A DNA stretch of 64,000 nucleotides. It comes from an uncultured Gammaproteobacteria bacterium. GTDB lineage: Bacteria; Pseudomonadota; Gammaproteobacteria; Xanthomonadales; Xanthomonadaceae. The stretch is from the NCBI GenBank assembly GCA_963783035.1, contig CAWAMC010000001.1:133410-197409 (forward strand), read 5' to 3'. Below are positions 19,364-43,378 of the stretch, in pieces (position 1 is the first letter of the stretch; each line of letters opens with the position of its first letter). The notes beneath the pieces are model-generated. The model saw nothing but the letters and a program-made list of their open reading frames with translations, did no database searches and was not told where the DNA came from. The translations under genes were made by a program, and so were the position numbers.

Positions 19364-19370
19364 CGCAGCT

Positions 19371-22645: not shown

Positions 22646-23794
<1,149 letters not shown>

Positions 23795-24574: not shown

Positions 24575-25168
24575 CTATGGCTGCGGCACCAACTTCTTTT
24601 TAGCGATCTCATAAAACCGCTTCCGTTCGTCCATCCCGTTGTAGCCGCCGTTGATGGTGATGCCGATGAATTCGACGGGGCTCACCAGGATCACCTTCCC
24701 GCGATATTTCTTTTTGAGCCGATCGCTATCGGCGTGATTGGCGGGGTCGTTCAGTCCGCGCGTTTTCCAGTAGATGCACGCGCTCCACACGGCGTAATCG
24801 GGTTGTTCCAGCAATTGCGGATTGTTGATGAACAAGTCGCGCTGACCGCGCTTGATCCCCAATTGCAGATAATTCGCGCGCCCGGTGGTCTGGAAAATAC
24901 CGCGACCTTTGAAGCGGACACCGTCGCCGGCTTGGGTGTTGCCGAGATCTTTGCGCCCTTCGTACGCTTTGCCCGACGCGTATTCCCGCAGGGTGCGGAA
25001 ATGATCGGTCTCGTGGCAAGCCTGTGCGAGAAAATGGCAATACTCTTTTGCCGTGTCGATCTCGAAGTCCGGGCAGATCCGATTCATGCTGTCGGCCAAC
25101 GCGGGCATCAGCGCGGTGGGTTTGCCGGCGATCGCGGCGAGGTGTTCTGATTTGACGATATAGGCCAT
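24575..25168 (-). CDS. Glycoside hydrolase family 19 (endolysin/chitinase-like), no signal peptide
   Basis: FLAQACHET, YEGRKDLGN, DGVRFKGRGIFQTTGRANY and INGGYNG motifs; AGGAGG RBS. Confidence 0.92.
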   Translation of the reverse strand: MAYIVKSEHLAAIAGKPTALMPALADSMNRICPDFEIDTAKEYCHFLAQACHETDHFRTLREYASGKAYEGRKDLGNTQAGDGVRFKGRGIFQTTGRANYLQLGIKRGQRDLFINNPQLLEQPDYAVWSACIYWKTRGLNDPANHADSDRLKKKYRGKVILVSPVEFIGITINGGYNGMDERKRFYEIAKKKLVPQP

Positions 25169-25570
25169 GTGATGGTCCTCCTAGGCGAGTGAACGCGAAC
25201 GCCCCGCGATAACGGACACATTGGTTCGACACATCGGGGTCCACTGTCCTTATCGTCGCCGCCTGTCCGAAATTCGGATGGCCTTGCGTTATCCATAGTC
25301 GAGCGTTGATGAATGCATATCGGAATTCATGGCCGGTACGCATTCGATTGGGAGCTTCCGATACACACGGAAGCGCCGCGGCATATGGAGTGCCGTTCGC
25401 CAATACCCTGCATCAACAGGGTAGGGCGACGAAGCCTGTCTGAAAGGCATAGCGCTAGCGAATCCGAACATCCGTCGGATAAGCACCTTTTAGATGAATC
25501 CAAGGAAGGGATTCGTCGAGAGTCCCCATCGACTGTTGTATCGCGCGCTGCGTTACGCGAAGGACTATGT

Positions 25571-27946
25571 ATGCCGCCAGGGCGTTTATTGGATATCCAG
25601 CACGTAGTGTTGGGCCCGCAGATTCGGGTCGCAGATATGGGGCGGGTCGCACAACCGGTCAAACCTGTGCCGGCGGCGCCTGTGCCTGCCGATCCACCCG
25701 CGCCAGCGTCGGCTCCTGCTCAACCGTTCGTCCTCGCGCCTGGGGCGCTGAACATCGTGCGTAGCGATTTGATGCTCGACGCATCCGCGCTGCGCGTCGC
25801 GGCGATCAAGCCGACGCGGTTGCGCCCGAGCCTCGAAATGATGCGGCCGCAATTGTTCGTGGACAAATCCGGGCAGGATTTCGAGCGTAAGGATTCGCCG
25901 CATCCGATCAGTCCGGCCTTGCAGCCGAACGATACGATGGTGTTCGAAGATCCGAATAGCAATGTTCGTTACTGGTTGCCGCGTTATCGATTGCGCGAAC
26001 TCAGCAATGGTCGTTACGACAGCCATGTGACCCAAGGCGGCGACGGTCGATGGGCGATTAGTCTGGGCTTGGAAGCCTACCCGGCACCGGAGGTTGCGGA
26101 TGCCGCGCGCACGGCGCAGCCTTTGCCGCATCAGCTCGCGGTGTCGCTCTCGTATCGTCAGCCGAATACCACCATCGAGCGGCGTTTGGCGATCGACGAA
26201 TTGTTGACCGATGCGCGCGGGCCGGTCGCGATCTTGCGCTTATCGTTGGCGGAACGCGATGAACTGCTTGGCGCCTTCATGTCGCCGACGTCGGAAACGA
26301 CGTTGTCGGTCGTGCGTAGCTTCACGGTCGCCACGACGAGCGCCGATGCCGGCGCGTCGCCGCCGAAACGCCGCTTCCATATGCGCGATCACACGATGAT
26401 GATGCGCGCGCTGGCGGTCGAAGAAGCCGTCGTGGCACCAGTCGCTGAGATGCGGGTCTCGCCCGCGACGGCGAGAATCGCAACGCGCACCGACATGCGC
26501 CATATTCGCAGAGAGATTCCCGATACTGCACTGGAGGGCACGATTCATCGGCCACGACCGATTCGTGTGCCTGACACCACGCCGGAGATCGAGCCGGAGC
26601 CTGTCGCCGCACCGCGCTATCGCGCTGCGGCGCAAGTGCAACCACTATCGATCGCGCTGCGCTTTCCGCCTGCGCTGCATCCTTATCTGTATCCCGGCGG
26701 CAGCCCGAGCGCTGGCGGCACGAGTTGGGATATTCACAACCTGGCGTATTCGACCGACGGCCGTTCGCGCAATCACGTGTATTTTCAAAGCACCGCCAAT
26801 CCCGCGCGTTTCTATTACTTGCCGGACGAGTTCCGCTTGGCGCGCAGAGGGACCGCACCGTTCACGCCCGCATTGGCGTTCGTGGTCGATCAAGGGCAGG
26901 ACGCGAGCAGCGAAACAGAGGTCGAATTGGCGGCCGATGTGCGCCCAGTGACCGACGGCAAACGTCTGCTCGCCGCGCGCCAGGAATTGAAAAAGAAATT
27001 GCCGACGACCGGCGCGGCCACGCCCACCGAAATCAGCCTGGAGCCGTTACTCGCCAAAGCGAGTTTGCGCCTGGGCCTGCCGCGAGGCAGCCTGACCGAA
27101 ATGACGCAAGTCGATGTCGATATCGATCTCGCCAATGGCTTCCAGCTCAGCGAACGTTTCAAATTAGACGATGAGTTCCAGGATGTCTTCGCGGCCTTGA
27201 TGGCGAGCCAGGCGTCGAGCCTGTTGCAAGGCAAAGTGCTGGTGTCGACCGGTCTCGGCGGCGATGTGCAAATCCCGGTCAATCTCAATTTCCACAAACT
27301 CGAAGGCGAAGTGTTCGATTACACCGAAGTCACCGAACCGGTATCCGGTACGGTGTCGGCGACTTTGCGCAACGATAGTGGCGGCAAGCTCAAGGTTTCG
27401 TCGTTACCGGTGTGGCTCAGCCGAAACGGGACGATGGTCGAAGCGAAACTGGAAGGCATCGATCTCAGCCGCCCGGTCGAGATCGAACCCGATGCCGAGA
27501 TCGTGTTCAAAGTGGTGCCGGTGGCAGCGTGGCCTGTTGGCGTGGAGGGCATTTGCGATGCGATCTTCGACACCTCCGGTATCAGCAGCGTTCCGGATTC
27601 CGAACGTCTGTTCGTGCAGACCTTCGATAGCAGCGTTGCGCAGGAAGCGACGCGCAGTGTGATCGCGATGACCGATGCCGAGTTGCTCGAAAGCGCGCAA
27701 GCGCCGGAGAACGCGATCCGTCTGATCGTGATCGAGTTCCGCGGCAACATCAGCGTGCGCTTGAGTTCGACCAAGCTTGAGCAAACTGTCGACGTGCCGG
27801 TGCCGTTGATGGATAGGCTGCTCAACAAAGACACTCAAGGCACTTACAAATTTAGACAGACCATCATCTATAAATCGGGGCGCCAACAGGTCGATTCCGC
27901 TTGGCGAGAGACCGACGCCGCGGTTCTGTTCGTGCCGAGCGCTTAA
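25571..27946 (+). CDS. Uncharacterised cluster protein A (divergent paralog, duplicated YYLP-type module)
   Basis: RBS AAGGA before ATG 25571. FEDPNSNVRYWLP and QSTANPARFYYLPDEFRLARR modules; C-terminal YKFRQTIIYKSG..W repeat like the other paralogs. Confidence 0.75.
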   Translation: MPPGRLLDIQHVVLGPQIRVADMGRVAQPVKPVPAAPVPADPPAPASAPAQPFVLAPGALNIVRSDLMLDASALRVAAIKPTRLRPSLEMMRPQLFVDKSGQDFERKDSPHPISPALQPNDTMVFEDPNSNVRYWLPRYRLRELSNGRYDSHVTQGGDGRWAISLGLEAYPAPEVADAARTAQPLPHQLAVSLSYRQPNTTIERRLAIDELLTDARGPVAILRLSLAERDELLGAFMSPTSETTLSVVRSFTVATTSADAGASPPKRRFHMRDHTMMMRALAVEEAVVAPVAEMRVSPATARIATRTDMRHIRREIPDTALEGTIHRPRPIRVPDTTPEIEPEPVAAPRYRAAAQVQPLSIALRFPPALHPYLYPGGSPSAGGTSWDIHNLAYSTDGRSRNHVYFQSTANPARFYYLPDEFRLARRGTAPFTPALAFVVDQGQDASSETEVELAADVRPVTDGKRLLAARQELKKKLPTTGAATPTEISLEPLLAKASLRLGLPRGSLTEMTQVDVDIDLANGFQLSERFKLDDEFQDVFAALMASQASSLLQGKVLVSTGLGGDVQIPVNLNFHKLEGEVFDYTEVTEPVSGTVSATLRNDSGGKLKVSSLPVWLSRNGTMVEAKLEGIDLSRPVEIEPDAEIVFKVVPVAAWPVGVEGICDAIFDTSGISSVPDSERLFVQTFDSSVAQEATRSVIAMTDAELLESAQAPENAIRLIVIEFRGNISVRLSSTKLEQTVDVPVPLMDRLLNKDTQGTYKFRQTIIYKSGRQQVDSAWRETDAAVLFVPSA

Positions 27947-27947
27947 C

Positions 27948-29759
27948 GTGCTTACCGGACGCCCGGATTGGCATGCGCCGACTCATGTCGCGGGACGGCC
28001 GGCGTTCGCCGCCTACGAGCGGCCCGGGCAGTTCCAAGTCGCACCGATCAAGCTTTCTGCGACGACACAGGACCAAGAACCCTCGTTCCGATTGGATATT
28101 TATCAGCAGGATCGCGGTGATGCGGGCTTAGCGAGATTTTCGTTGCTGTCGGTCGGGTTCGCTGCCGCATTCGATCTCGATGCGCTGCGCAGCACGATCG
28201 CAGACAGCGGGGTTCAGGCGAACGTCGGTCCGATCGAAGCCGAACGCGGTTGGGTTCGCCTCACCTCGGCCTCTGCGCTCGATTTGCCCGAAGCGCTGCA
28301 TGTATTACAGCCGTTGGATATCGTCGGTCTGGGAACGATGGGGCTATCCGTGCGGCTCGACGATGCCGCGACCGATCTATTCCTCGGCGCATTACGACGC
28401 GGAATGACCACCATCGGTGCGGAAGCATGGATCGCCGTTCGCGGAGTCGCGGAGCGTATCGCCATGACTGTCGCTTTCGATCCTGCGAAGCTCTCGACGG
28501 CGTTGAAGCTTTTGGCGCAGGGCAGCGACGCGTTGGGCCTTGAAACATTGCGCGAGGCGTTGGCGTCGACACCGGAACGCTTGGGTTTCCCGATGTTGTC
28601 CACGCTGACGCAAGAACAGAGACTCGTTGCGGCGAATGCATTGATCGATCGCTTTTGCGACCGTTTCGCCGGGCTGTTTCCCGATGAAGGCGATGGTGCG
28701 CAAGTCGCCGCAGGGCAGGATAGTCCGAAGACTCGTATCGTCTTCGACCAAACGCGGATGCTGCCCGGTACGGTCGTCTGGGATCTTTCCGAGCCGTTGC
28801 TCGCGACGCGGATGTTCGCGGTCGCGGCGGACCCGCTCAGCGCATTGCGAGAGTGGCCGTCGGCGGAATGGGAAGCGCGCGTCGTCCACCATCACGACGT
28901 TCGCGCTCTCGGTAGCGGCTGGCATCGAGTGACGGTGCGACAGAATCTGCCGGCGCGTCGCATCGGCGTGCTGCAATCGCAAGTGGAATTGAGCGCGCCC
29001 CCGAAACCGCCGATGCGACCCTTCACGGCGAAAGCCTCGGCGCGTTTCGATGGCCGTGCGCAGGCGACGACGGCGGAATTGCGTCTCGCGCCGAACGAAG
29101 CGCTCGTCTATCGATACAAAACCGTCGTCACCATCGTCGACCATGGCCGCGCCGAGCGGATCGAGGGGCCGGTACGGGAATCGCAACGCGAAAACTTGCT
29201 GGTATCGCCCGACGATTTTGGCGTGAACTTCGTCGTCGTCGAAGCCGATACGGTCTTTTTATCCGAGGCGCAGATCGCGGTCGAGCTTTACGGCATGCGG
29301 CGCGGCCAGTCTTGGTCGATTCAAGGCGTGCTCGATGCCGCCGCATCCGATATCGCGTTCGCGGTTCCTTACGACGTCGAGTCGCTGCAGATCCGCGCGA
29401 TCGCCCGAATGAGCGACGGCAGCAACGAACGCGCGATGGTGCCGGTCGCGGCGGAACATCTGCGTCTCGATGCTTTCAGTTTCGAGGGCAGTGGCCGCCG
29501 CAGTGTCGCCATCGAATGCGCCTTCGACGACGACAAGCCGCAGGTCGTGCTCGAGCTTGCGCCCGAAGGACGCCAGCACGAACCCGCGCGCCGCCAACAG
29601 ATCCGACTCATGCCCGCGGCCTCGACCGCAGAATGGTCGTGGATGGCCTTGTCGCCATTTCGATCAGGATACCACTGGCGCTGGCACGGACAAAGCGAAT
29701 GGTCCGAAGCCGTGCAACCTGCGGAGCCGCTGACATTGCTCAGCAGTCGCGCTCCATAA
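27948..29759 (+). CDS. Uncharacterised cluster protein B (divergent paralog)
   Basis: GTG start 1 nt after the previous stop. Degenerate core (LSVRLDDAATDLF) and beta-sandwich-like repeats (YRYKTVV). Confidence 0.7.
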   Translation: MLTGRPDWHAPTHVAGRPAFAAYERPGQFQVAPIKLSATTQDQEPSFRLDIYQQDRGDAGLARFSLLSVGFAAAFDLDALRSTIADSGVQANVGPIEAERGWVRLTSASALDLPEALHVLQPLDIVGLGTMGLSVRLDDAATDLFLGALRRGMTTIGAEAWIAVRGVAERIAMTVAFDPAKLSTALKLLAQGSDALGLETLREALASTPERLGFPMLSTLTQEQRLVAANALIDRFCDRFAGLFPDEGDGAQVAAGQDSPKTRIVFDQTRMLPGTVVWDLSEPLLATRMFAVAADPLSALREWPSAEWEARVVHHHDVRALGSGWHRVTVRQNLPARRIGVLQSQVELSAPPKPPMRPFTAKASARFDGRAQATTAELRLAPNEALVYRYKTVVTIVDHGRAERIEGPVRESQRENLLVSPDDFGVNFVVVEADTVFLSEAQIAVELYGMRRGQSWSIQGVLDAAASDIAFAVPYDVESLQIRAIARMSDGSNERAMVPVAAEHLRLDAFSFEGSGRRSVAIECAFDDDKPQVVLELAPEGRQHEPARRQQIRLMPAASTAEWSWMALSPFRSGYHWRWHGQSEWSEAVQPAEPLTLLSSRAP

Positions 29760-29780
29760 CTCGATGATGAGGATGCCAAC

Positions 29781-30455
29781 ATGGATAAGGAATTACGCGG
29801 CGTATTGTTGACGCCAATCAAGGACCAACCCGGGGCTTGGGAATATCGTCCGAAGCAACCAGGTATCGCGACCACAGGAGACGGCGGCGCTCAATTTACG
29901 ATGATCGCCGCAGGCAGCATCACGATGCTGTCGCTGACGACGATATGGGGCGTGCCTGCGAAGACGCTCGAGAATGTGCGTATTGATCTCGCGACTGCTG
30001 GGGGGTGCCCATCAAACAAGATTCTGCTCAGTCCAGCGGCAATCGATGCGGGCACGGCCGAACTACAATTCGGCGATGGTAATGGCGCTTTTTCCACAGT
30101 GAGTACGGCGCAATCGTCGGGTTCGCCACCATTCCATGCCGCATTCAGTCTGATGCTCGATCAGGCGCAGGCCGAGAAAGTGCATAAAGCTCTTTCCGGC
30201 GAGCGCGGTTGGTTCGGAGTGCGGTATACGCTCACCGGCCACGCGGCACCGACGCGCGAAACCACCGCGACACATGAAGCATCGATCGATATCGGCGTTT
30301 CGTTGACGGACGAAGGCGGTTCCGCCTCCGCGCACGGCACGGGGAGCGCCCGTACGTATACCGCGACCGCGAGCGAAACCCGAGACACAGGCAGCGGCTA
30401 TTCCTTTGCCGATGCCGCGGACTGGGGCATGCCAGCGCACGGCCCTGTGTCCTAA
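29781..30455 (+). CDS. Uncharacterised cluster protein C (core domain only)
   Basis: GAGG RBS. WEYRP..PAAIDAGTA..AAFSLMLDQAQA..GVRYTL aligns by eye with WYLP..PFDDGTV..AVFSLELSAEGA..GVIYDL. Confidence 0.7.
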   Translation: MDKELRGVLLTPIKDQPGAWEYRPKQPGIATTGDGGAQFTMIAAGSITMLSLTTIWGVPAKTLENVRIDLATAGGCPSNKILLSPAAIDAGTAELQFGDGNGAFSTVSTAQSSGSPPFHAAFSLMLDQAQAEKVHKALSGERGWFGVRYTLTGHAAPTRETTATHEASIDIGVSLTDEGGSASAHGTGSARTYTATASETRDTGSGYSFADAADWGMPAHGPVS

Positions 30456-30834
30456 AAAACGCTGCGTTGACGTTGGTATCGAATACACGAGTATCGAGGA
30501 CACGAATCGTGGCGACATCGGACGCGGTGTCGTGAGACGGCCGGCCGCGAGATGGGAGGCTTCGTCGCGCGACGCGGTTGCGACGAAGCCGAGCACGATG
30601 CAATCGGGATCAACACAGGCGTCGATCGAAACATCGACGTAATGCGTATTCGACGTCTCCGTATTTCTCCGTGCGCTGCGTTATTACCGAAACGAATCGC
30701 CATCTGCAATGCACTGCATCAAAAAAACTGTTGTCCGCTTTTCGCCGGTGCGCGCGTTCACTCCATCTGCCAACACGCTGTCTTGCATGGCGATGCTGAA
30801 AAAGACCAAGACGATCATCTAAAGGAGCGCAATC

Positions 30835-33021
30835 ATGTTGCAGCTAGACAATGTCCGCCAAATGCACGGCTATACCGTCCATGGCGATCACGCCAGCGAC
30901 CACACCTTCTATATCTATCCGGAGGAGCCGACTTTCAAGCGGATGGAAAATGGCGGCTTGGCGATGCGCTTCGTCGAATACGGGCAACTTCGCGAAGACG
31001 GCGGCAAAAAATTCGGCGGCTTCATCGCATTCGACGCCGAGCTCTCGGTGCCGGAGGCCGTGCAGAAGAAAATCACCACGGACCTGCAAAAAGATGTCGA
31101 CAAAAAATACAAGGATGCCGGGAAAACTCCACCCAAGGTAGTGATTTCCCCGGTCAGTTGGACCGACGGCACGGTCGAACTGCTAATGACGCAGGGTGGT
31201 GCGTTGATCGAGACCATCCGCGGCGCCGGCGCACCGTCGTTGTACGGCAAGAACATCGCTTCGTTCATGATGGAACTCTCTGAACTCGGCACCGCGATCT
31301 TCAAAGAGACCTTGAGCAAGGGTACCGCATCGGGGGTGCAGGTCGTGTACAAGCTCAATCACTACGTCCGGCTACCGGAGATGACCGCTTGGGGCACCTG
31401 GAACGCGTCTGAGTTCTACAGTTTTTTCCAGGACATCAATACCGAAGACAATTTCTGGTGCGAAGACAGCTACACCGAAGTGGTCAGTTCGAGCCGCTAC
31501 AAGAACGACGTCACCAAGACCCATTTCGAGTTCGTGCAGACACCGAACCTGAAACCTGAGGAAAATGCGAAGCTCGAAGCCGATATCCGCGCGATCATCA
31601 ACAAGCAATTGGAAGCGGCAGTGCAGCGCAATTTGCTGAAGGAGATCGCTGAAGTCGACCCGAATACGAAAGAACTTCAGGAAGGGCAGGACATCGAAGA
31701 CATCAAGCGCACGGTCAATAAGAGTCAGATCGCGAACGTGCGCGTGGAATGGAGCGAAGCCAAAACGGTGATTCTCAACAAGAATCCGCAAGGCATGTTG
31801 CCGACGGTGACGTCGATCAAGGGCGCCGACAACAAGCCGCTCAAGTGGGAAGACTATTACAGCAAGATCAGCGTGGACGAGTTCCTCAAGACCTTGCAGG
31901 TCAATATGCGGGTCAATGCGGATTTCGCTAATCTTCCGATCGATAGCGTCGAAGTCAAGATCAGTTACCCGCATGGTCCGAACGCTAAAACCAAAGAGTT
32001 CACGTTCACCAAGCCGGACGATGTCGCGAAGTTCGAGGCCTTCGTCCACAACAGCATCCGCAAATTCAAGTATTCGTACACCGTCAATTACAAGGGCAGC
32101 AACTTCGTCTATCAGTCGGAGCCGGTCGAGACCGACGATACCAATCTGACGATCAATGTCGACGATCTGGGTATCCTCGCGCTGGACATCGCGCCGGGCG
32201 ATATCAATTTCGGCCAAGTCGATCGCGCCCAGATCACCTTGCGTTATGCCGGCGGCGACCGTCCGTTCGAAGCCAAGTTCAACATGACGAAGGATTCCAA
32301 TACCTTCAAGGTCCGGCAGATCGTCAAAAAGCCCGTGACCGGCCCGGTCGAGTATCAGATCGTCTATCAACTCGCCGATGGCCGCGAAATCAAAGGGCCT
32401 AAGCGCGAACAGCACGCCAAAGAACTGTATATCGACGACCCCTTCAGCGCGATCAAGACGATCGGGTTCCGCGCGACCGGCGATCTCGAGAACGAAATCA
32501 ACTCGATCACCGTCGAGTGCACGTACGTCGATGCCGGCAACAACTATCGGCAGAAAACCACCAAGAATCTGTCCGCGGACAACCCGGCTGAGGACTGGTC
32601 GTTCCCGGTCATCGATGATGCGATAGGGGATGTCTCCTACAACGCCACCATCATGTTCAAGGACGGCACGATGAAGGAACTGCCGGAAGCACCGGCCAAA
32701 CGTTCCACCATCACCATCGGCAGCGGTACGGTCGACTTCCTCGAAATCAGCGTGGTGCCGGATCTCATCGACTGGGACAAAGTCAAGCTGGTCAATGTCG
32801 CGTTGAAATACGAAGACAGCGCCAACGGCGTCAAAGAGCGCACCGATCTTCGCTTCAAGTCCGGCGACGCGGAAAAGAGTTGGAAGGTCGCGCTGAAAGA
32901 CCAAGCCAAGACCGAATACGAAGCCACGATCACTTATTTCATGATCGATGGCGGGCGCAAGGTCGTGGTCGGCCCGAGCAAGCAGTCGGATCTGTCCGTA
33001 TTCCTCGAAGTTCCGGCCTGA
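30835..33021 (+). CDS. Uncharacterised cluster protein D (core + 4 beta-sandwich repeats)
   Basis: AAAGGAG RBS. MLQLD..GDH..FYIYP..GGFIAFD..WTDGTV..PSLYGKNIASF..NPQG. Confidence 0.85.
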   Translation: MLQLDNVRQMHGYTVHGDHASDHTFYIYPEEPTFKRMENGGLAMRFVEYGQLREDGGKKFGGFIAFDAELSVPEAVQKKITTDLQKDVDKKYKDAGKTPPKVVISPVSWTDGTVELLMTQGGALIETIRGAGAPSLYGKNIASFMMELSELGTAIFKETLSKGTASGVQVVYKLNHYVRLPEMTAWGTWNASEFYSFFQDINTEDNFWCEDSYTEVVSSSRYKNDVTKTHFEFVQTPNLKPEENAKLEADIRAIINKQLEAAVQRNLLKEIAEVDPNTKELQEGQDIEDIKRTVNKSQIANVRVEWSEAKTVILNKNPQGMLPTVTSIKGADNKPLKWEDYYSKISVDEFLKTLQVNMRVNADFANLPIDSVEVKISYPHGPNAKTKEFTFTKPDDVAKFEAFVHNSIRKFKYSYTVNYKGSNFVYQSEPVETDDTNLTINVDDLGILALDIAPGDINFGQVDRAQITLRYAGGDRPFEAKFNMTKDSNTFKVRQIVKKPVTGPVEYQIVYQLADGREIKGPKREQHAKELYIDDPFSAIKTIGFRATGDLENEINSITVECTYVDAGNNYRQKTTKNLSADNPAEDWSFPVIDDAIGDVSYNATIMFKDGTMKELPEAPAKRSTITIGSGTVDFLEISVVPDLIDWDKVKLVNVALKYEDSANGVKERTDLRFKSGDAEKSWKVALKDQAKTEYEATITYFMIDGGRKVVVGPSKQSDLSVFLEVPA

Positions 33022-33034
33022 AAGGAGAGCCGTC

Positions 33035-35314: not shown

Positions 35315-35327
35315 GGAGTCTTTCTCC

Positions 35328-37571
35328 ATGTTGCAGCTCGATGCCCGCACTCTCACGATCGAAGGCGTGACTATTTTTCGAGATCACGCCGATCCTACGC
35401 AATTCTGGTATCTGCCCGGTCCGGTCGCTCTCGCGCGACGCGAATCCGATCAGCGGTCGAAGTTCACCTATCTCAAATATAAAAATCGCCCGGGTGCGAC
35501 TCGCCGCGGCGGCGGGTTCTTGATGATCGAAGTCAATCTGAAGCTCGACGCCGATGCCGAGCGTCGAGTTCTAGAACGACTGGCTTCGATTAGCCGCGGG
35601 CGTCCGAAATTGACGCCCGTGCCGTTCGACGACGGAACCGTCGCCTGCGTCGCATTGAACCTGCAGGGCGCCGGCGGAACGCGCGCGAACCCAGGGCCGG
35701 AAGGTTCGTTCAGTGCGGTCGAAACCATTCTCGGCGCCAGCAAACCTTCGCTTGCGGGCGAGAACACGGCGGTCTTCAGCCTCGAATTGTCGGCAGAAGG
35801 CGCGACGATTCTGGAAAAAGCGTTCAAGGACGGCACCACGCCGATCGGTGTGATCTACGACTTGAAATACACCGGCCTACGGCCTGCGTTCAACGTCAAG
35901 ATCACCGCGAATTTCAATCAAGTATTCACCCATTTCAGCACCTCGGCGGATGGCCAGCGCGGCTTTACTCGCGCCGGCATTGATGTCGGCTTCGAGAGTT
36001 TGGTCCGCAACGGCGCGATCAAGATCGAGGTCGCCGACATGACCGGCACCGCCGAGAACGAAACGCGCATCAAAGACGCGTTGGATTTCTTCAAGGCGCA
36101 AGTGTTGAACACATGGTTCACGCCTGCGATGACGCCGGGGACGCTCGCCGCGACCGCAGCGAGCGCGACTTCGCTCGATCAAGTGCGCGCGCTCGGTGTG
36201 CAATTGCGTCCGCCGCAACCGCCGGCCCCGCCGCGTCCAAGCGATACACCTGCAGCGGCAGAGCCTGTCGATCATGGGCCGAGCCCCACCGCAGGCAGTG
36301 GCCATGGCGATGCCGAAACCGGTTTGCCAGCGGGCCCGACCGAAGGCGCTGCCGATGCCAGTCCGACAGAAGGCTCAGGTCAGCCCGCAGTCGCAGGGCC
36401 CGCGCCCGCGAGCGGTGCGGTTGGCGTCGCCGCGAGCCGCGAACGCGGTGCGCCGGTGCAATCGGTGGCCGATCGCGCGAACGGCGACGCTGCGCACGCA
36501 GACGATACGGTGGCATCGTTCCGATTGAGGACCATCCGTCAGGAAGAACGCCGCACCGCGACGTTCGAATACAACCGCTCCGAGGCGCAGCAACGCACCT
36601 ATGCGCCGCAAGGCTTCATCGGCTTGCTCGCGCGCGATCTGAACCGGCCGCCGTATTTCGTCGAGATCGATCTCGACGACCCGTTCTTCCGCACGTTCAA
36701 GATCGAAGCCAAGACGCCGTTCGACTACGAGAGCATCGGGCTGAAAGAAGCGCATCTGCAGATCGACTACGGCCCGATCAACGATCCGACCAATCATCGT
36801 CGCCAGGACTTCGTGTTCGGCGCTGAAGATCGCGGCCCCAAGGATGTCGAATTCGCGGTCAACTTGCGCAAAGACCGAACCTATAGCTATCAAGCGCAGT
36901 TCCACTTCGACCCGGCCAGCGGCTGGGACGGCGAAAAATTCTCATACGATCAGCCGCGCGTGCCGGCGACCGACGACCGCACCTTAATCATCAACCCGAT
37001 GGATGCGCTCAGCTTCATGTCGCTGCGCATCGAGCCGGGTCGGATCGATCCTGGCATCGTGGATTCGATCGAAGTCGAATTGGAATACCGCGATCCGGCC
37101 GGTTGGCAGCGCGAAAAGACCATTCGCATCGATCCCGATGCGCCTGCGACGGCCGAATGGAAACTTCGGGTATCGCGTAATTCGACCCGCAGTTATACCT
37201 ACAAAGTGACGCATCGCCTCAAGGACGGATCGGTCCGCGCCCTCGCGCCGGTGACGACCAAGGCGACATCGATCGTGATCGACGACCCGTTCCCCGGTTC
37301 GATCGACGTGACGATCTTCCCGACGCTCGACTTCGGCAGTTTGCGCGCAGCGATGCTCGATGTGCGTTACGAAGATCCCGCGAACCGCTATATGCGCCAA
37401 GAGCGGATCCGTCTCACCGCGGAGACCACCGAAGCCACGGTGAGATTCTCCACGCCCAATCCAACGCTCAAGCGTTATCGCCATCAGCTGACGTTGGTCC
37501 ACGCCGACGGCCGCACCGAACGCCAGCCGGCGATCGATACCGAAGACGACATCATCAGCATCGTCGCTTGA
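35328..37571 (+). CDS. Uncharacterised cluster protein F (core with Pro/Ala-rich insert + 3 repeats)
   Basis: TAAGGAG RBS. MLQLD..FRDHADPTQFWYLPGPV..GGGFL..FDDGTV..YAPQG..EIDLDDPFFR. Confidence 0.85.
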   Translation: MLQLDARTLTIEGVTIFRDHADPTQFWYLPGPVALARRESDQRSKFTYLKYKNRPGATRRGGGFLMIEVNLKLDADAERRVLERLASISRGRPKLTPVPFDDGTVACVALNLQGAGGTRANPGPEGSFSAVETILGASKPSLAGENTAVFSLELSAEGATILEKAFKDGTTPIGVIYDLKYTGLRPAFNVKITANFNQVFTHFSTSADGQRGFTRAGIDVGFESLVRNGAIKIEVADMTGTAENETRIKDALDFFKAQVLNTWFTPAMTPGTLAATAASATSLDQVRALGVQLRPPQPPAPPRPSDTPAAAEPVDHGPSPTAGSGHGDAETGLPAGPTEGAADASPTEGSGQPAVAGPAPASGAVGVAASRERGAPVQSVADRANGDAAHADDTVASFRLRTIRQEERRTATFEYNRSEAQQRTYAPQGFIGLLARDLNRPPYFVEIDLDDPFFRTFKIEAKTPFDYESIGLKEAHLQIDYGPINDPTNHRRQDFVFGAEDRGPKDVEFAVNLRKDRTYSYQAQFHFDPASGWDGEKFSYDQPRVPATDDRTLIINPMDALSFMSLRIEPGRIDPGIVDSIEVELEYRDPAGWQREKTIRIDPDAPATAEWKLRVSRNSTRSYTYKVTHRLKDGSVRALAPVTTKATSIVIDDPFPGSIDVTIFPTLDFGSLRAAMLDVRYEDPANRYMRQERIRLTAETTEATVRFSTPNPTLKRYRHQLTLVHADGRTERQPAIDTEDDIISIVA

Positions 37572-37636
37572 TCGCGACGGCATGACTCTTTCCCATCGAC
37601 TCAATTCCGACGTCAACCAATTCCTAGGAGCATCCC

Positions 37637-38539
37637 ATGACCAAGCGTGCTGTCATCGTCGGTGTCAACGACTATTCCGTGCAGGGTTACAACGATCTGC
37701 GCTTCTGCATCGCTGACGCCGCATCGATCTACCACATGCTGCGCGACGCCTTCGGCTTCGATCCGCAGGACATGTTCTATCTCGTCGACAGTGCGGCGAC
37801 GTCATCGCGTATCCGTCAGGCACTGCGTTATTGTCTGACGCAATCGCAGCCAGGGGATGTCGTGTGCTTCTACTACTCTGGGCATGGCGGCCGCACTGCG
37901 AACCCCGCAGATGCGACCCAGATGTTCGAGACCATCATTCCGTATTCCGGGCAGCACATCAGCGACCACGAAATCTATGCCCTCGCCGACACGCTCGAAC
38001 AGTCGGTCGTGAATTTCACCATGATTCTCGACAGTTGCCATGCCGGCGGCATGCACGACGAGAGCGAACGCGCACGCCGCGCGCGTTCTCCGCAATTCTC
38101 GGCCGACCTGATTCGGCAATTGACCCAGTGCCGCACCCTGTTCCCTTGCGGTATCTGTTTAGCGCCGGCCAATCGCTCATCGTTGACCGGCAATATCCGC
38201 AACGTCTCCGCCCGCAATTCCGGTGTGGTCGTCGAAGAAGACTCCAATCGTCGTTTGGTGCAGTTGGCGAAATCGACCTTGATCGCGGGCAGCAGCGCTG
38301 CCGAAACTTCGCAAGAGCACGAAGCCGTCGGCCATGGGTTGTTGACCAAGGCGTTCTTGGAAATCGTCAACTCCAGTAATTTCACGATCGAGCACCACGG
38401 CTTGATCGACGATCTGGACCGTCGTGTCAGGGCACTGATGAATGCTCATTTCCCGGGCGAATCGCAAACGCCGCAGTTGCGTGGGCAGGCCAACCGCATG
38501 GAAGAAGACTTCCTCATGGGTTGGCGCGACTGCCGTTGA
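37637..38539 (+). CDS. Stand-alone caspase-like (C14, metacaspase-type) cysteine protease
   Basis: KRAVIVGVNDY, LRFCIADA, FYYSGHG (catalytic His), ILDSCHAG (catalytic Cys), HGLLT and QTPQL motifs. Confidence 0.92.
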   Translation: MTKRAVIVGVNDYSVQGYNDLRFCIADAASIYHMLRDAFGFDPQDMFYLVDSAATSSRIRQALRYCLTQSQPGDVVCFYYSGHGGRTANPADATQMFETIIPYSGQHISDHEIYALADTLEQSVVNFTMILDSCHAGGMHDESERARRARSPQFSADLIRQLTQCRTLFPCGICLAPANRSSLTGNIRNVSARNSGVVVEEDSNRRLVQLAKSTLIAGSSAAETSQEHEAVGHGLLTKAFLEIVNSSNFTIEHHGLIDDLDRRVRALMNAHFPGESQTPQLRGQANRMEEDFLMGWRDCR

Positions 38540-38655
38540 GCGCATCGGAAAGATCCGTTGCCGGATTTCCAACCGATGACGTTGTTATCTATATCGATGT
38601 TATTCGTATCAGCGCATGGCGCTGTCGGCGCCCGTGAGACACAAAGGAATACGCT

Positions 38656-41610
38656 ATGTTGAGCCTCGAAAAACCGCTGACGATCGATGGGCTGACTGTC
38701 TTTCGCGATCATGCCGATCCGAATCAATTCTGGTATCTGCCTGGCCCTGTGTCGCTCGCGCGCCGCGCGAACGAGCCTGCCCTGGCCGAATTCTCGATGC
38801 TGAAGTACAAAGCCGCCAGCGTCGATGTCGCCAAGAAAGGCGGCGGGTTTCTGATGTTCAAGGCGACCTTGAAACTCAGCCCGCAACTGGAATCGCGGAT
38901 CACCGGCCGCTTGAACGCGGAGCCCGGCGTCACCCCGCCGGTTCGTTTGACCGCAGCGCCGTTCGAGGAAGGCGCCGTGCAGTGCATCGCGCTCAATGTG
39001 CAGGGCGCGGGCGGTACCGCGGCGGCCCCGCCGCCCGAGGGCGCGTTCAATGCGGTCGAGCATATTCTCGGCGCATCCACGCCATCCATGGATAGCTCGA
39101 ACGATGCCGCGTTCAGCCTGACGCTTTCGCAGGAAGGCGCGACCATCCTCGAACAGGCGATGAGCGATGGCATGACCCCGATCGGGGTCATCTACAACAT
39201 GAAATATCTGGCGATGCGTCCGGCGATCGATGTCGAGATCACCGCCGATTTCGAGCGCATCTTCAATCATTTCAGCGTCAGTCTCGAAGCGCAGTACATG
39301 TATCTGCGCGGCGGCATCGATGCCGCGTTCGAATCCTTGGTGCAGACCGGCGCGATCGTGATCAAGGTGCTGACCTTCACCGACGAGGAAGACGAGCGCG
39401 AGCAAGAGCGCTGGGCCTTGGAATTCTTCAAGGACGATCTGCTGTCGAAATGGTTCGAGCCCTCGTTAACGCCGGGCCAGACCGCCGCCGATGTGGCCGA
39501 TGCCGATCCGCTCAGTGAAGTGATTGCGACCGGCCGCGATTTGTTGCGCGATGCCACCACCAGCACGACCACGGGCACAGGAACGGGCACAGGCACAGGC
39601 ACCAACACCAGTGGAACGACGACGAATACATCGACCGGTGCGGGGACCACACAAATTCAGCCGGCCGTACTGACCGTCGATGAGCAGCAACCGACGCCGT
39701 TGCCGGCCGGGCAGGGCGTGACTCACACACCATCGGCTTCGGGACTGAGCGAGACCCTCACGATCACCGGCGCCGGTGCGACGGTGAGAGTCGCGGGACA
39801 AGCGGTGACGCCGGATTCCGCTGGGCGCATTACGGTCGCGGTCGATCCCGCTTCGCAGAAATCCATCGAAGTGGATTGGCCCGCTGCGAGCGAAGAGCAA
39901 ACGTTCGGCTTGTTCTTCGATTTCGACAAACCATCCGAGGCCGGTTGGCGGGTGAATCCGCCCTCGACCGAATACCGAGCGTACGTCGATAACACCACCA
40001 CCGACCCGCGGTTCCGCGATGCTTCGGGCACGTTACGAATCGAAGGCGACGGTAACTGGAGCGGCCCGGAGCGCGGCGCCGATCGTCTGCGCGCCTGGAT
40101 ACAACGACTGCCGGCACCACGAACGGTACGCGTCGAAGCCTATGCCAGTCACGAACATGTCAACGGCGCGAGCGAAAGCGCACGGGCTTCGCACAACACT
40201 CGTTTGGCGACACGGCGTAGAGAAGTCGCACTGGCCATCGTGCAACGCGCCGGCGGCACTGTCAGTGGCGGTATCCCCCACGGCGATGCGCCCGCATCGA
40301 CCCGCCCCGGCTCGCATTCGGCGATGGGCGGAGACCCCGACAATCGCGTTGCGCACATCATCGGCCGCAGTGCAGGCACCACGCCTTCGCGTTGGCGCGG
40401 CACTTTGCGTCGCCCCGCTTCGATCGTGATCCCGCCGCAACCGCAGCCGCAACCACAGCCCCAGCCCCAGCCTCAACCGCAGCCACAACCACAACCACAA
40501 CCGCGACCGCAGCCGACCCCGTCGGCCGGCGGCGCTTCGCCGATTGGCGCTTCTTTGAAATTGAAATTCGTGCATCAGGAAGAACGTAAGAAACTCACGC
40601 TGCGCTACAACCGTGCCGAAGCGACACGACGCACGTACGCGCCGCAAGGCTTCTTCGGGTTGATGCTCGGCGATCTGCGCGATAAATCGAAATACTTCAA
40701 AGAAATCGATCTCGACGATCCGTTCTTTCGCGAGTTCAAGGTCGAAGCCAGTACGCCGGTCGCGTTCGAGCCGATCGGTTTGGTGTCGGCTCAAGTCGCG
40801 CTCGACTACGGCGATCCGTCCAAGCCGCTGGATCACAAGCACGCCGATTTCGTGTTCGTCGCTGGCGACACCGGGCCGAAGACGTTCAAAGTGTTCCTCA
40901 ACTCGACGCGCGATATCGATTACGACGTCGGCTTCCAGTACCACTTCGATCCGCAATCGGGTTGGGCCGCGGACCGCTCATCCTACAATATCCCCGCCGA
41001 ACCGACGGTCGACCGTACATTGTTCGTCAATCCTTACGAGCACATCGAGTTCCGCGAAATCACGGCGACGCCCGGCGATATCGATTGGGAAGTCGTCGAA
41101 ACGATCGAAGTGCGGCTGCAGGCGCACGGCTACGCACAACCGGAACCGCGCACAGCCTTGTTGCTGACCCGCGACAGCGGCCCGCTGACCTGGAAACTGC
41201 GCGGCGCCCGGCCGGCGCCACCGAATCGCGGCGTGACCTATCAACTGGTACAGCGCTTGAAAGACGGCACCAGCAACCGCACTGACCCGATCGATGTCGA
41301 TATTCCGCAGATCATCGTCCACGACTTGTTCGAAGACGCCTTGAAATTGGAATTCATCCCGGTCTTCGATCCGAATGCGGTCTCCCGTGTGTTCGTCGAT
41401 GTCGAATACCGCGACGACGATAACGCTTACGAACGCGACGAACGCCTGGAGATATTGGGCAGCGCGACCGATCCGGTGAAGTTGCGGATCGCCTTGCGCG
41501 ATAAGACCAAGCGCGAGTTCCGTTATCGCTTCACGTTCGTCGGCCCGACCGGTAGTTTCGATCGGCGGCCGTGGGTGCAGACCGAAGAAGAACTGCTGCC
41601 GGTGCAATGA
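38656..41610 (+). CDS. Uncharacterised cluster protein G (core with inserted OmpA-like domain, Thr-rich and PQ linkers + 3 repeats)
   Basis: Close paralog of protein F (FRDHADPNQFWYLPGPV, YAPQG, EIDLDDPFFR). The insert carries FFDFDK..VEAYAS..NTRLATRR..DNRVA. Confidence 0.85.
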   Translation: MLSLEKPLTIDGLTVFRDHADPNQFWYLPGPVSLARRANEPALAEFSMLKYKAASVDVAKKGGGFLMFKATLKLSPQLESRITGRLNAEPGVTPPVRLTAAPFEEGAVQCIALNVQGAGGTAAAPPPEGAFNAVEHILGASTPSMDSSNDAAFSLTLSQEGATILEQAMSDGMTPIGVIYNMKYLAMRPAIDVEITADFERIFNHFSVSLEAQYMYLRGGIDAAFESLVQTGAIVIKVLTFTDEEDEREQERWALEFFKDDLLSKWFEPSLTPGQTAADVADADPLSEVIATGRDLLRDATTSTTTGTGTGTGTGTNTSGTTTNTSTGAGTTQIQPAVLTVDEQQPTPLPAGQGVTHTPSASGLSETLTITGAGATVRVAGQAVTPDSAGRITVAVDPASQKSIEVDWPAASEEQTFGLFFDFDKPSEAGWRVNPPSTEYRAYVDNTTTDPRFRDASGTLRIEGDGNWSGPERGADRLRAWIQRLPAPRTVRVEAYASHEHVNGASESARASHNTRLATRRREVALAIVQRAGGTVSGGIPHGDAPASTRPGSHSAMGGDPDNRVAHIIGRSAGTTPSRWRGTLRRPASIVIPPQPQPQPQPQPQPQPQPQPQPQPRPQPTPSAGGASPIGASLKLKFVHQEERKKLTLRYNRAEATRRTYAPQGFFGLMLGDLRDKSKYFKEIDLDDPFFREFKVEASTPVAFEPIGLVSAQVALDYGDPSKPLDHKHADFVFVAGDTGPKTFKVFLNSTRDIDYDVGFQYHFDPQSGWAADRSSYNIPAEPTVDRTLFVNPYEHIEFREITATPGDIDWEVVETIEVRLQAHGYAQPEPRTALLLTRDSGPLTWKLRGARPAPPNRGVTYQLVQRLKDGTSNRTDPIDVDIPQIIVHDLFEDALKLEFIPVFDPNAVSRVFVDVEYRDDDNAYERDERLEILGSATDPVKLRIALRDKTKREFRYRFTFVGPTGSFDRRPWVQTEEELLPVQ
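40435..40500 (+). repeat. (Pro-Gln)x11 coding repeat
   Basis: CCN-CAR hexamers using mixed synonymous codons. Confidence 0.9.
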
Positions 41611-42533
41611 ACATCGAGGCTGCGCCGCTGATGCCGACGATCGCCCGGTCGCGTCTCGCGGCGCCGGTCGAAGCGACATTACAGCGGCTGCAGACGGTGG
41701 CGCCGGCGTCGTCCGACACCGCCCGTACATGGTTAGAGACGGTGCTCGATCCCTTGTCCGCATCGGTGTGGCCGGAGATGGCGTGGTGTTTCAGCCGCTT
41801 GACCAATACCGGGATGCCAGTCGAATTCGCGTGGTCTTCGCGCGAGGCTGCCGTCCGCTGGACCGCGGAAGTCGCTGCGCCGGAAATCGACAACGCCCAA
41901 CGCTTATCGCTGGCGGCCGCGTTGCTGCCGTGGTCGCTCGAATTGCAACCGTGGCTGCGTGCGCAACAGAACGCCGCATTGAAATACGGCGCGTGGATCG
42001 GTGGCCGGCATAAGCCGGACACCGCAACCAAACTGTATGTCGAGCTGGACAGCGGCGCATCGTTTCCCGGTTGCGATACGCACCCATTGTTGCGCTCGGA
42101 CGGATTGCTGTGGCGCATGGCGGGACTCAATGCCGACGGCAGCCGCGAATACTATGCGCGCGGGCCGTCGCTGGATCTGCAGCGTATCGACGCGATGTCG
42201 CGGATGGTCGCCGACGACAACGCAGATTTTCTCGCGTTGGTGAAGACGTTGACCGATGGCCATGATCTACCGCGGCCCTCCGGCATCAGTCTCGTCCTCG
42301 CGCCCGATGGTCGCCCGCTGGCGTTCACGTGGTTCACGTTCGCCAAAGCGATCTTTCGCGACGACGATGCGGTGTCGGCGTGTCTGCGTCCATTCGCTAC
42401 CGGCGATGCTGCGAGGATGTATACGGCGCTGTCGTCCGGCGCGCGCGATGGACGTTGGCGGCACGGCATGATCGGTGCGGGCGTCGACGCGCGCGGCGCG
42501 ACCTGGGTGCAGTGCGGTTTGCGTCCGACATGA
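41607..42533 (+). CDS. Putative ABBA/DMATS-fold aromatic prenyltransferase-like protein
   Basis: ATGA overlap with protein G. SRLTNTGMPVEFAW..VRWTAE and TKLYVE resemble the DMATS-family S.LT.DG.P.E.SW..VR and KxY motifs. Confidence 0.5.
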   Translation: MNIEAAPLMPTIARSRLAAPVEATLQRLQTVAPASSDTARTWLETVLDPLSASVWPEMAWCFSRLTNTGMPVEFAWSSREAAVRWTAEVAAPEIDNAQRLSLAAALLPWSLELQPWLRAQQNAALKYGAWIGGRHKPDTATKLYVELDSGASFPGCDTHPLLRSDGLLWRMAGLNADGSREYYARGPSLDLQRIDAMSRMVADDNADFLALVKTLTDGHDLPRPSGISLVLAPDGRPLAFTWFTFAKAIFRDDDAVSACLRPFATGDAARMYTALSSGARDGRWRHGMIGAGVDARGATWVQCGLRPT

Positions 42534-43378
42534 GTCGCGCGGCACGCGCAGTGCATGCCGAGATCGTCCCGATCCACGCATCGGCGGATGGTTTCATCGA
42601 CAGCGAAATGCAGACTGCGAGCGGGCGATTTGCAGATCGCAACGGTTTCACGACAGCGCTCGCGGTGCGTGCCCTACGTAGGCGCGGCCGTGCGTCGTCA
42701 TGCTCGACGATGCTCGATGCGCTGGAGCGCTGCCGCACTCATGAGGGTGGTTTCGGTTTCTGGCCATCCGATATGCGACCGTCTTGGGCGCCATCGCTGC
42801 CTGCGGATGCCGACGACACCGCGATCATGACCATGGAACTCTTTCTCGCTGGGCGGTTGTCGCGCGACGAAGCCCGGCGTATCGCGTGTCTGACGATCGG
42901 AAAACATCGGATCTCGCGTTTGCCTCAGTTGCGGCCGCCCTGGTTGCGTACCGGCGTGTTTTCGACGTGGCATCGTCGCGGCATCGCTTTCGATTTGATC
43001 GACTGCACCGCGATCGCGAATGCGTTGGCACTCTTCGCTGTACTCGATCTGCAGACGATTCCCGGCGTGCGCGCGTCGATTGCGTTGTTGCGCGATGCCA
43101 TCGCCTGGGCGGGCGACGATGAACTTCGCGCTTGCAGTCTGTCGCCGTTTTACCCCGATCCACTCGAACTGGTGCTCGCACTGGACAATGCGATCGAGGC
43201 CGGCGCTACCGACCTCGCTGAGGCGCGCGCCGCGGCGATACGCACGCCTTGGGGACAGAACGCCGAAACCCGCGCCGCGCACGAAGATCACCGTGTGTGT
43301 TCCAGTCCGTATGGCGCATCGGTGTGGCGCTCGCCAGCGTTGGCGCGTCTGCGCGCGGGAATGTCGACGGCCGCTTAA
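42530..43378 (+). CDS. Putative class II terpene cyclase-like protein (single alpha/alpha-barrel domain)
   Basis: ATGA overlap. PADADDTA (DxDD), GGFGFW, GVFSTW, IDCTAIANAL and SPFYP motifs. Confidence 0.6.
   Translation: MSRAARAVHAEIVPIHASADGFIDSEMQTASGRFADRNGFTTALAVRALRRRGRASSCSTMLDALERCRTHEGGFGFWPSDMRPSWAPSLPADADDTAIMTMELFLAGRLSRDEARRIACLTIGKHRISRLPQLRPPWLRTGVFSTWHRRGIAFDLIDCTAIANALALFAVLDLQTIPGVRASIALLRDAIAWAGDDELRACSLSPFYPDPLELVLALDNAIEAGATDLAEARAAAIRTPWGQNAETRAAHEDHRVCSSPYGASVWRSPALARLRAGMSTAA

Follow-up and report, generated by a model that had tools for sequence, protein, structure and literature searches.

Ten consecutive genes, seven of which encode related proteins belonging to no named family, raise the question of what kind of system they form. 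They lie in a 64,000-nucleotide stretch of DNA (here referred to as the window; contig CAWAMC010000001.1, positions 133,410 to 197,409) from an uncultured gammaproteobacterium of the Xanthomonadaceae. The genes follow one another co-directionally on the plus strand from 25313 to 43378, with a likely cassette span of 25571-43378, and a gene for an endolysin of glycoside hydrolase family 19 (GH19) lies divergently beside them; an earlier note on this DNA had listed exactly these genes, and all of them are present. In gene order the products are proteins A to F, a C14 protease, and proteins G, H and I. We found that A to G share one module, that their genes recur in the same order in unrelated genomes, and that the last subunit comes in two versions, each with its own enzyme partner. 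Our overall reading, which we hold tentatively and at somewhat less than even confidence, is that the cassette encodes one hetero-oligomeric assembly whose last subunit is switched by an enzyme and which engages the cell envelope.

A new cassette of paralogous proteins

By BLASTP, proteins D, E, F and G are clear paralogs along their whole length, with E-values of 1e-15 to 1e-30 for the pairs among them. F and G are 52% identical in their N-terminal 297 residues and 39% in their C-terminal 355, E shares 30-31% identity with both of them over the N-terminal module (N-module), and C matches E with 25% identity over 171 amino acids (E-value 4e-8). Comparison of ortholog profiles by hhalign related residues 10-190 of B and residues 4-151 of C to the N-domain of the F family, with probabilities of about 94.5% and of 94.5%, respectively. 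The relation of A to the F family is weak (32%), and the motif FYYLPD..LARR is common to both. Protein A consists of an A-specific N-terminal half, a divergent copy of the module at residues ~477-620 of its open reading frame (ORF) and a beta-rich C-terminus. Judged by these comparisons, A-G are seven real paralogs built on one module, and the earlier description of a common core with repeats in D-G, and of A, B and C as divergent or truncated members, was right.

The repeats themselves proved to be beta-sandwiches in the AlphaFold models, three to four of which follow the shared module in D-G. Protein F begins with the N-module (residues 1-270), from which a disordered, Pro-rich linker (~270-400) leads to three to four beta-sandwich domains (410-747); the latter were modelled with a predicted local distance difference test (pLDDT) score above 90. 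With a deep alignment, AlphaFold2 also gave a confident model of the F N-module (pLDDT 90.3), in which residues ~26-181 form an immunoglobulin-like (Ig-like) beta-sandwich with two inserted helices and residues 194-292 form a helical subdomain. The beta-sandwich arrays are well conserved and not diversifying. Orthologs across phyla correspond one to one, with identities of 33-39% for D, and of 41-44% for E; one-to-one orthologs of B were present in five of the five phyla first examined. An amphipathic membrane hairpin, which had earlier been suspected in the core, found no support: the confident model has sandwich strands and a variable Gly-rich loop, short in D, at this place, and any alternating pattern there is too short for a transmembrane hairpin.

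Proteins A-G have no match in Pfam, NCBIfam, PHROG or PADLOC, and none among the sequences of the PDB, where the profile of the N-module likewise found nothing. Structure searches with the N-module were hardly more productive. The best E-value of Foldseek against the PDB was 0.014, and VIA-align against 48,161 chains reached a Z-score of at most 5.4, with Ig-like sandwiches over residues ~26-185 (at most 5.2 in a second look). Only the family itself was returned from the ESM Atlas, and full-length F retrieved generic multi-Ig proteins with template modelling (TM) scores below 0.2. Fusions or short forms of the N-module were fragments without Pfam domains and gave nothing informative. Moreover, none of the ten proteins has hallmarks of a type VI secretion system (T6SS), an extracellular contractile injection system (eCIS) or tailocin, or a Tc toxin in Pfam, NCBIfam or PHROG, as the earlier note had held; G gave spurious low-complexity matches, all under the cutoffs. 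The core is thus, as the note had also indicated, not assignable to any known family, and the cassette is new. We found no published description of it in the literature.

One structural neighbour stands apart. An uncharacterised protein of Medusavirus stheno T3 (A0A7S7YF07 in BFVD) matched the N-module in Foldseek with an E-value of 2.4e-5, a TM score of 0.34 and 15% identity over 208 columns. It is the only significant structural neighbour outside the family, and the only viral match.

The family is large, although it carries no existing annotation and has no solved relative. There are at least 1019 clusters of the N-module family at 50% identity, F has more than 300 close homologs, none of them with a Pfam domain, and the public names of the members that we saw are all "hypothetical protein" or lacking. 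We collected 156 stretches encoding a relative in species-representative genomes and kept 78 loci. They come from Gamma-, Beta- and Alphaproteobacteria, Nitrospirota, Bacillota, Chloroflexota, Actinomycetota, Bacteroidota, Balneolota, Acidobacteriota, Verrucomicrobiota, Cyanobacteria, Eremiobacterota, Eisenbacteria and two Methanosarcinales; a Deinococcus carrier is known too, so that the spread covers at least 12 bacterial phyla in addition to the Methanosarcinales. Among the 54 loci with enough upstream sequence, 51 have the order A-B-C-D-E-F on one strand, with one-to-one orthology according to hidden Markov models of each gene, and orthologs of A take the first cassette position in 51 of the 54. 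Such recurrence of one cassette, with its gene order intact, across dozens of unrelated genomes is far beyond chance, and the earlier view of an undescribed multi-subunit system is supported.

Within this broad range the distribution is sporadic. Carriers make up 4 of 36 congeners, there are none among 24 genomes that represent the order's other families, and the source genome has one copy of the cassette. A plasmid collection gave three distant matches, all on large replicons, and phage records had no matches to the cassette. From 40 genomes we took the 4.5 kb preceding A; the 136 ORFs there matched 169 Pfam families, none of which occurred in more than 3, and downstream neighbours are likewise variable among loci. 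On this ground we reject the idea that the flanks hold a conserved partner for secretion, regulation or immunity, and since no flanking family recurs in the 40 genomes, the cassette appears self-sufficient. From these genome comparisons, it is self-contained and moves horizontally, rarely on plasmids and not on known phages. With a size of ~15-18 kb and its portability, it should be amenable to heterologous expression.

Several loci depart from the standard arrangement. B and C are fused in Lysobacter brunescens, and an extra A-like gene stands at the end of the cassette in some loci. A circular permutation (F, protease, A, B, C, D, E) was found in ena:ERZ21831251 (L091, locus 9014-22262). Plasmid p2 of Pararhizobium qamdonense, a 900-kb replicon and one of the three plasmid matches, holds a distant seven-gene variant without the protease (L089, locus 1-14487), whose consecutive hypothetical genes have ~30% identity to F, and another size pattern and arrangement. 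The two metagenome-assembled genomes of Methanosarcinales (L061 and L064) have the full set, including H, I and a G-type insert with the OmpA-like motif described below, and an additional short D-like ORF between B and C.

The two terminal subunits and their enzymes

Two classes can be told apart in the F family, short (~740-830 amino acids, F-type) and long (~930-1120 amino acids, G-type), and they differ in the gene that follows. After short F-type genes, the next gene is the protease in 38 of 42 cases and H in the other 4. After long G-type genes it is never the protease (0/38) and is H in 31 of 38, with neither of the two in the remaining 7. Fisher's test for the protease pairing gives p ~1e-18, without phylogenetic correction. 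A cassette holds an F/protease pair, a G/H pair or both, and both are present in this window.

The linker of the short class is Pro-rich and disordered, with the pattern L-[RK]-P-P...P-x-[RK]-P ~25 residues after the module and, in many lineages, two SPTxGTG motifs. That of F in the window reads L-R294-P-P...P-P-R303-P and continues with PSPTxGSG (318-325) and SPTxGSG (345-351). A regular expression for [RK]-P..P matched 37 of 43 short F proteins. R-P-P is present by eye in two protease-paired proteins that it missed (L029 and L035), and four more short F genes outside the pairing count also carry it, including that of L017, where the contig ends just past the protease gene. The motif is lacking in exactly four short F-like proteins, namely those paired with H. 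Among 41 long G-type proteins it occurs in 4, there only in low-complexity repeats.

The protease fits a known family (PF00656, E-value 8e-24, 85 bits against a cutoff of 21.4), and had rightly been called an intact C14 protease: His83 (SGHG) and Cys134 (DSCH) are kept, with C24 and D132, in all 43 cassette-linked orthologs, and D27 in 42 of the 43. Its closest solved relatives are Arg/Lys-specific metacaspases (AtMC4 and Yca1; chains of metacaspases 4, 1 and 9), with E-values of ~3e-17. It resembles metacaspases and orthocaspases (AtMC4, Yca1, TbMCA2, MaOC1) in the H and C dyad, in the C..D/D.C pocket pattern, which may correspond (C24..D27 and D132.C134) to the Arg/Lys pocket of TbMCA2, and in having no fused sensor; unlike them, it is a dedicated subfamily that follows an F-type subunit. 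Because the linker motif co-varies with the protease, and the protease keeps the metacaspase-type pocket residues, the F linker is in our view its most likely target, and we hold it somewhat more likely than not that the protease acts on F. If this is correct, F would be a natural substrate for a prokaryotic metacaspase. There is a parallel in the cyanobacterial MaOC1, which is reported to cleave the product of a neighbouring gene (PMC7935541). In several loci of Bacteroidota and Micropruina (L031-L036, L043, L051, L069), two tandem C14 genes follow F, of the subtypes GHGG[LI] and GHG[AS]R, and the catalytic His and Cys are kept in both.

A caspase-like protease beside a set of co-conserved proteins also calls to mind abortive infection or programmed death. 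The paralog complex would then be a cytoplasmic sensor and executioner, of which the metacaspase would set free an active, cell-killing form on phage infection or stress, with the endolysin assisting the killing in some lineages. In bacterial gasdermin systems, caspase-like proteases are reported to activate adjacent effectors (10.1101/2021.06.07.447441). The cassette protease fits the PADLOC caspase model (1e-17), WD40/CHAT/STAND-type genes come after some loci, and a sporadic, transfer-driven distribution would also be expected under this explanation. However, A-G, H and I match no PADLOC model, the protease is missing in half of the cassettes, and the upstream flanks are housekeeping genes with no recurrent defence family. 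We consider abortive infection unlikely, also in view of the lack of phage-record matches, of beta-sandwich arrays that are conserved instead of diversifying, and of a length of ~15 kb, which is very large for a defence system without nuclease or NTPase.

Bacterial gasdermin operons, in which the adjacent protease is caspase-like, of CHAT type or of another kind, resemble the F/protease pair in several respects. They have a stand-alone caspase-family protease beside a signal-less protein with a ~270-residue N-domain and a cleavable region, their distribution is sporadic and transfer-driven, and lipidation may play a role in both systems. Bacterial gasdermins are palmitoylated. The cassette differs from them in having no gasdermin match in Pfam or among the fold matches listed for the N-module, and no detected pore-forming features, six to seven paralogs in place of one effector, Ig-like arrays, and no protease in half of its instances.

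Protein G has an F-like N-module and the C-terminal repeats; between them, in place of the linker, stand a Thr/Gly-rich spacer, a module of ~240 amino acids and a (PQ)n spacer. The Pro-rich repeat spacer of the long class is made of PT, PP or PPV elsewhere, and the insert module is kept from Proteobacteria to Methanosarcinales. From about residue 491, its C-terminal half resembles peptidoglycan-binding domains of the OmpA/Pal type. The profile of the insert gave marginal though consistent matches to YiaD (0.012), PA0833-PD (0.013), RmpM (0.17) and YfiB (0.8-1.2), all over the motif N..LS..RR..V, whose Arg is invariant (R193 of the alignment); no Pfam family matched. The insert resembles OmpA, Pal and MotB-type domains in the N..LS..RR..V...G motif and the invariant Arg, and departs from them in its marginal E-values, its position in the middle of the signal-less G and its retention in archaea.

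H, the partner of the G-type subunit, appears to be a divergent aromatic prenyltransferase like those of the DMATS/ABBA type. Its profile (33 orthologs) matched the tryptophan dimethylallyltransferase 4yzj in the PDB with an E-value of 4.1e-5, the DMATS-type 6zrx/6zry with 0.02 and 7w8u with 0.22. Moreover, its language-model neighbours are ABBA prenyltransferases with PTase_Orf2 or Trp_DMAT, and the UniRef name of the Paenibacillus ortholog is "Tryptophan dimethylallyltransferase". Its invariant residues are G69, P71, K142, Y144, E181 and Y183; E73 and R134 vary only rarely. No Pfam family, PF11991 and PF11468 included, matched H even at E-values up to 5. Protein I, whose gene often comes after H in a subset of loci, resembles a single-domain class II terpene cyclase. 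The motif D93-A-D95-D96-T97 is invariant in its 15 orthologs, and its language-model neighbours carry SQHop_cyclase_C, AstC-like_C or TED_complement, while Pfam gave no match and the profile found nothing among PDB sequences, MstE included. Of the accessory genes, those of the protease, H and I are conserved neighbours of the paralogs; GH19 accompanies them in the Lysobacter-type lineage only.

H and I together resemble a split version of NctPC, an ABBA-fold prenyltransferase fused to an MstE-like monodomain cyclase, which transfers a geranylgeranyl chain to a tryptophan of a peptide before cyclising that chain (PMC13290415). I would correspond to the cyclase, being small and single-domain with an acidic motif of DxDD type; MstE uses DxD and not DxDD (PMC12414744). 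The known substrates of NctPC and MstE, unlike the 1000-residue proteins here, are short peptides or small molecules, and no precursor-peptide gene is present in the cassette. That the acceptor of H is a protein seems to us quite possible, though we lean somewhat against it. If so, this might be the first case of an ABBA-type enzyme that lipidates a large bacterial protein with a terpenoid, and attachment with cyclisation, so far known only for short peptides, would occur on a full-length protein.

H and I could alternatively be a meroterpenoid pathway for a small molecule that travels with the cassette and does not modify its proteins. Small aromatic compounds are the usual substrates of DMATS/ABBA enzymes and class II cyclases, and one monodomain cyclase, MstE, serves a meroterpenoid (PMC12414744). 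In addition, no conserved acceptor peptide is obvious, and four H-paired proteins have no OmpA-like insert. We nevertheless find this quite improbable. In 31 of 38 loci from many phyla, H comes immediately after the G-type gene, here with a stop-start overlap, and is never found in a protease-only cassette without a G-like subunit or one with a low-complexity linker. The conserved cassette has no gene for a polyprenyl diphosphate synthase or for an aromatic precursor, and the prenylation and cyclisation of peptide tryptophan has precedent. In the window, a gene for a polyprenyl diphosphate synthase (PF00348, 5.5e-81) is located 5 kb upstream and is a possible source of the prenyl donor for H; it stands outside the conserved cassette elsewhere.

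A possible envelope-engaging assembly

It is uncommon for six paralogs to keep a single order in different domains of life, and such fixed sets usually mark a defined hetero-oligomeric machine. We regard a physical complex of the paralogs as probable, and here return to our reading of one enzyme-switched assembly. Its core would be six paralogous, cytoplasmically made proteins, A-F, which form one hetero-oligomer built on the shared N-terminal module and decorated with C-terminal beta-sandwich arrays. When the N-modules of D, E and F were modelled together from separate alignments, the prediction scored 0.29 (mark 0.32), which speaks neither for nor against a complex.

In this assembly the last subunit would be the regulated one, in two versions. 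First, the exposed Pro-rich linker of F, with its conserved basic residues, would be cleaved by the adjacent Arg/Lys-type metacaspase, or at least serve as its binding site. Second, G would carry an OmpA-like peptidoglycan-binding module on long spacers, and its partner H, often together with I, would attach and possibly cyclise a terpenoid lipid. Cleavage or lipidation might then turn a soluble pre-complex into an envelope-engaged form, after which, in the Lysobacter-type lineage, the GH19 endolysin without signal peptide would reach the wall. The envelope is proposed as the site of action because the putative wall-binding insert sits on long spacers and a signal-less wall hydrolase is present in some lineages; we rate action at the envelope as evenly balanced. 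The F/metacaspase and G/prenyltransferase pairs are two directly testable enzyme-substrate hypotheses.

How such an assembly would act is more doubtful. A lytic or pore-forming outcome, which had been suggested earlier, seems doubtful to us, and its pore-forming part found no backing: among the fold matches listed for the N-module there is no gasdermin, MACPF/CDC, aerolysin or other pore former, and the best matches are Ig-like sandwiches with Z ~5. These negatives consist of absence from the matches listed and of no Pfam hit, with which a remote relation is compatible. We think it unlikely that the cassette encodes a sequential six-subunit machine, armed by the metacaspase or by a terpenoid, which breaches or spans the envelope as a prokaryotic counterpart of the complement membrane attack pathway in logic and not in ancestry.

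Complement C5b-C9 and the bait regions of alpha2-macroglobulin (A2M) type are here a works-like analogy only, as the nearest known systems are in general analogies and not memberships. Common to them and the cassette are a fixed paralog set presumed to assemble in order, an exposed, putatively protease-sensitive linker on one subunit and beta-sandwich (macroglobulin-like) domains, and I, a small alpha/alpha-toroid-like partner, is near the TED/squalene-cyclase folds by language-model features. The cassette has neither a MACPF domain nor a thioester motif, and no homology is implied; the Foldseek matches of F to C3, C5 and A2M (TM below 0.1) reflect single Ig-like domains.

A number of observations weigh against our reading, apart from the missing pore-former likeness. 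Signal peptides are absent from all eleven proteins, as had been seen earlier, and so are convincing transmembrane segments; the OmpA-like domain of G would nevertheless have to reach the wall, and no route is evident. The cluster encodes no transmembrane protein or holin and no clearly amphipathic segment. The OmpA-like match is marginal (best E-value 0.012) and extends to archaea without peptidoglycan. The insert is absent from the four H-paired short proteins and so cannot be the sole target of H, H is absent from 7 of 38 G-type loci, and H and I might make a small molecule instead. As for F, its conserved Arg is followed by Pro at P1', which may make cleavage less favourable. About half of the cassettes have no protease, which so cannot be a universal trigger. 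Since protease and H are each absent from some cassettes, neither is essential to the core. Finally, the flanks consist of ordinary housekeeping genes, not defence islands, and give no hint of defence or antagonism.

A non-lethal structural assembly, such as an envelope scaffold, a tether or an intracellular lattice, with protease and prenyltransferase as maturation enzymes instead of triggers, is another candidate. The proteins are nearly entirely beta-sandwich, like adhesins, pilins and macroglobulin-type proteins; the paralog set is fixed and stoichiometric, without toxic domains or NTPases; and the OmpA-like module with TonB-like Pro-rich spacers suggests anchoring over a defined distance. 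Such an element would, however, unusually have a patchy horizontal distribution, and neither export signals nor assembly chaperone or secretion genes nearby were found. We rate it rather unlikely as well.

The adjoining wall hydrolases bear on the question of whether the proteins are released from the cell. The GH19 protein matches phrog_181 (endolysin) over residues 5-194 with an E-value of 7e-47, and reaches 22.1 bits with PF00182, under the cutoff of 25.5; like H, it therefore fits a known family more loosely than the protease does, with profile matches that do not pass the Pfam score. E53 (HET) and E62, presumably the catalytic glutamates, are present, its N-terminus is not hydrophobic, and no holin was found in the cluster. 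A 75% identical copy stands just upstream of A in Lysobacter brunescens, and another at the same position in a related Lysobacter; the query had no match in the Paenibacillus, Microbacterium and Deinococcus carrier genomes. GH19 as a core component is rejected on account of its confinement to the Lysobacter-type lineage. In L091, a gene for a Peptidase_M15_3 protein of 113 amino acids (a phage-type wall peptidase) precedes the cassette. A peptidoglycan hydrolase thus adjoins the cassette in two unrelated forms, and wall hydrolases are absent from most loci. This is suggestive of a link to the cell wall in particular lineages only.

Large signal-less toxins are released by a holin and an endolysin, and type 10 secretion is the holin/endolysin release of signal-less proteins, e.g. 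by Serratia ChiWXYZ and Salmonella TtsA. The cassette is like these systems in the signal-less muramidase GH19, or the M15 peptidase of L091, beside large signal-less proteins, and unlike them in lacking a holin or spanin gene and in having the hydrolase in few lineages. The proteins could be imagined, in line with the antagonism or predation proposed in the note, as a secreted or lysis-released, toxin- or bacteriocin-like complex acting against other cells, with the Ig-like arrays and the OmpA-like module binding the target. Hosts that include lytic or predatory Lysobacter, in whose lineage the endolysin adjoins the cassette, and a putative wall-binding module on long spacers fit such a complex. 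We hold it to be improbable, because the cluster has no recognisable toxic domain, immunity gene, holin or transmembrane protein, most loci have no wall hydrolase, no likeness of the proteins to Tc, eCIS, T6SS or known pore formers was found, and the cassette is also present in methanogenic archaea and cyanobacteria.

Locus layout and neighbouring genes

The coordinates of the cassette and of nearby features in the window are compiled in Table 1. The starts given for A, E, H and I are the most likely ones by comparison with orthologs; the alignment of A orthologs begins at residue 87 of the ORF. The genes are tightly packed, with 2 nt between the stop of A and the start of B, and ATGA stop-start overlaps at G/H and H/I. 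The only sizeable gap within the cluster, noncoding and 380 bp long, lies between the genes of C and D. Several distant loci, e.g. L001, L005 and L084, have a comparable C-D gap, and this recurrence suggests an internal regulatory region. The gap contains no Rfam family and no consensus promoter. A scan of the noncoding sequence likewise gave nothing in Rfam, and fewer promoter and terminator sites than shuffled controls. The sequencing runs listed with parts of the stretch are of metagenomic DNA, with none listed from RNA.

Table 1. Features of the cassette and its surroundings, in nucleotides of the window
Feature	Length	Coordinates	Strand	Remarks
Polyprenyl diphosphate synthase gene		19371-20411	-	PF00348
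IS110-family transposase		22646-23617	-	DEDD_Tnp_IS110 and Transposase_20
GH19 endolysin gene	197 aa	24575-25168	-	phage-type, without signal peptide, divergent from the cassette
Protein A	~791 aa	25571-27946	+	start from ortholog alignment; ORF open from 25313
Protein B	603 aa	27948-29759	+	shared module in the N-terminal 190 residues
Protein C	224 aa	29781-30455	+	shared module alone
C-D gap	380 bp	30456-30834		noncoding
Protein D	728 aa	30835-33021	+	shared N-module and tandem beta-sandwich repeats, no long linker between
Protein E	759 aa from ML.LD start	33035-35314	+	ORF open from 32948; shared module and beta-sandwich repeats
Protein F	747 aa	35328-37571	+	short terminal subunit
F linker motifs		36207-36380	+	candidate recognition or cleavage site for the protease
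C14 protease	300 aa	37637-38539	+	stand-alone, metacaspase-type, His83 and Cys134
Protein G	984 aa	38656-41610	+	long terminal subunit
G insert	residues ~334-571	39655-40368	+	conserved module; C-terminal half OmpA/Pal-like
Protein H	308 aa	41607-42533	+	divergent, DMATS/ABBA-type prenyltransferase-like
Protein I	282 aa	42530-43378	+	small; D93-x-D95-D96-T97 motif at nt 42806-42820
MscS-type channel gene		43973-45169		between the cassette and the M35 pair
M35 (Aspzincin) gene, first		45916-47184	-	lysine-specific metalloendopeptidase
M35 (Aspzincin) gene, second		47313-48419	-	lysine-specific metalloendopeptidase

The IS110-family transposase gene is ~1 kb beyond the GH19 gene and may mark the edge of an acquired island. 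On the other side of the cassette, an MscS-type channel gene is followed by two tandem, paralogous M35 genes. In a locus from Saprospiraceae (L090, 14453-22262), genes for Peptidase_S74, Kelch-like, WD40 and CHAT protease proteins come after the cassette.

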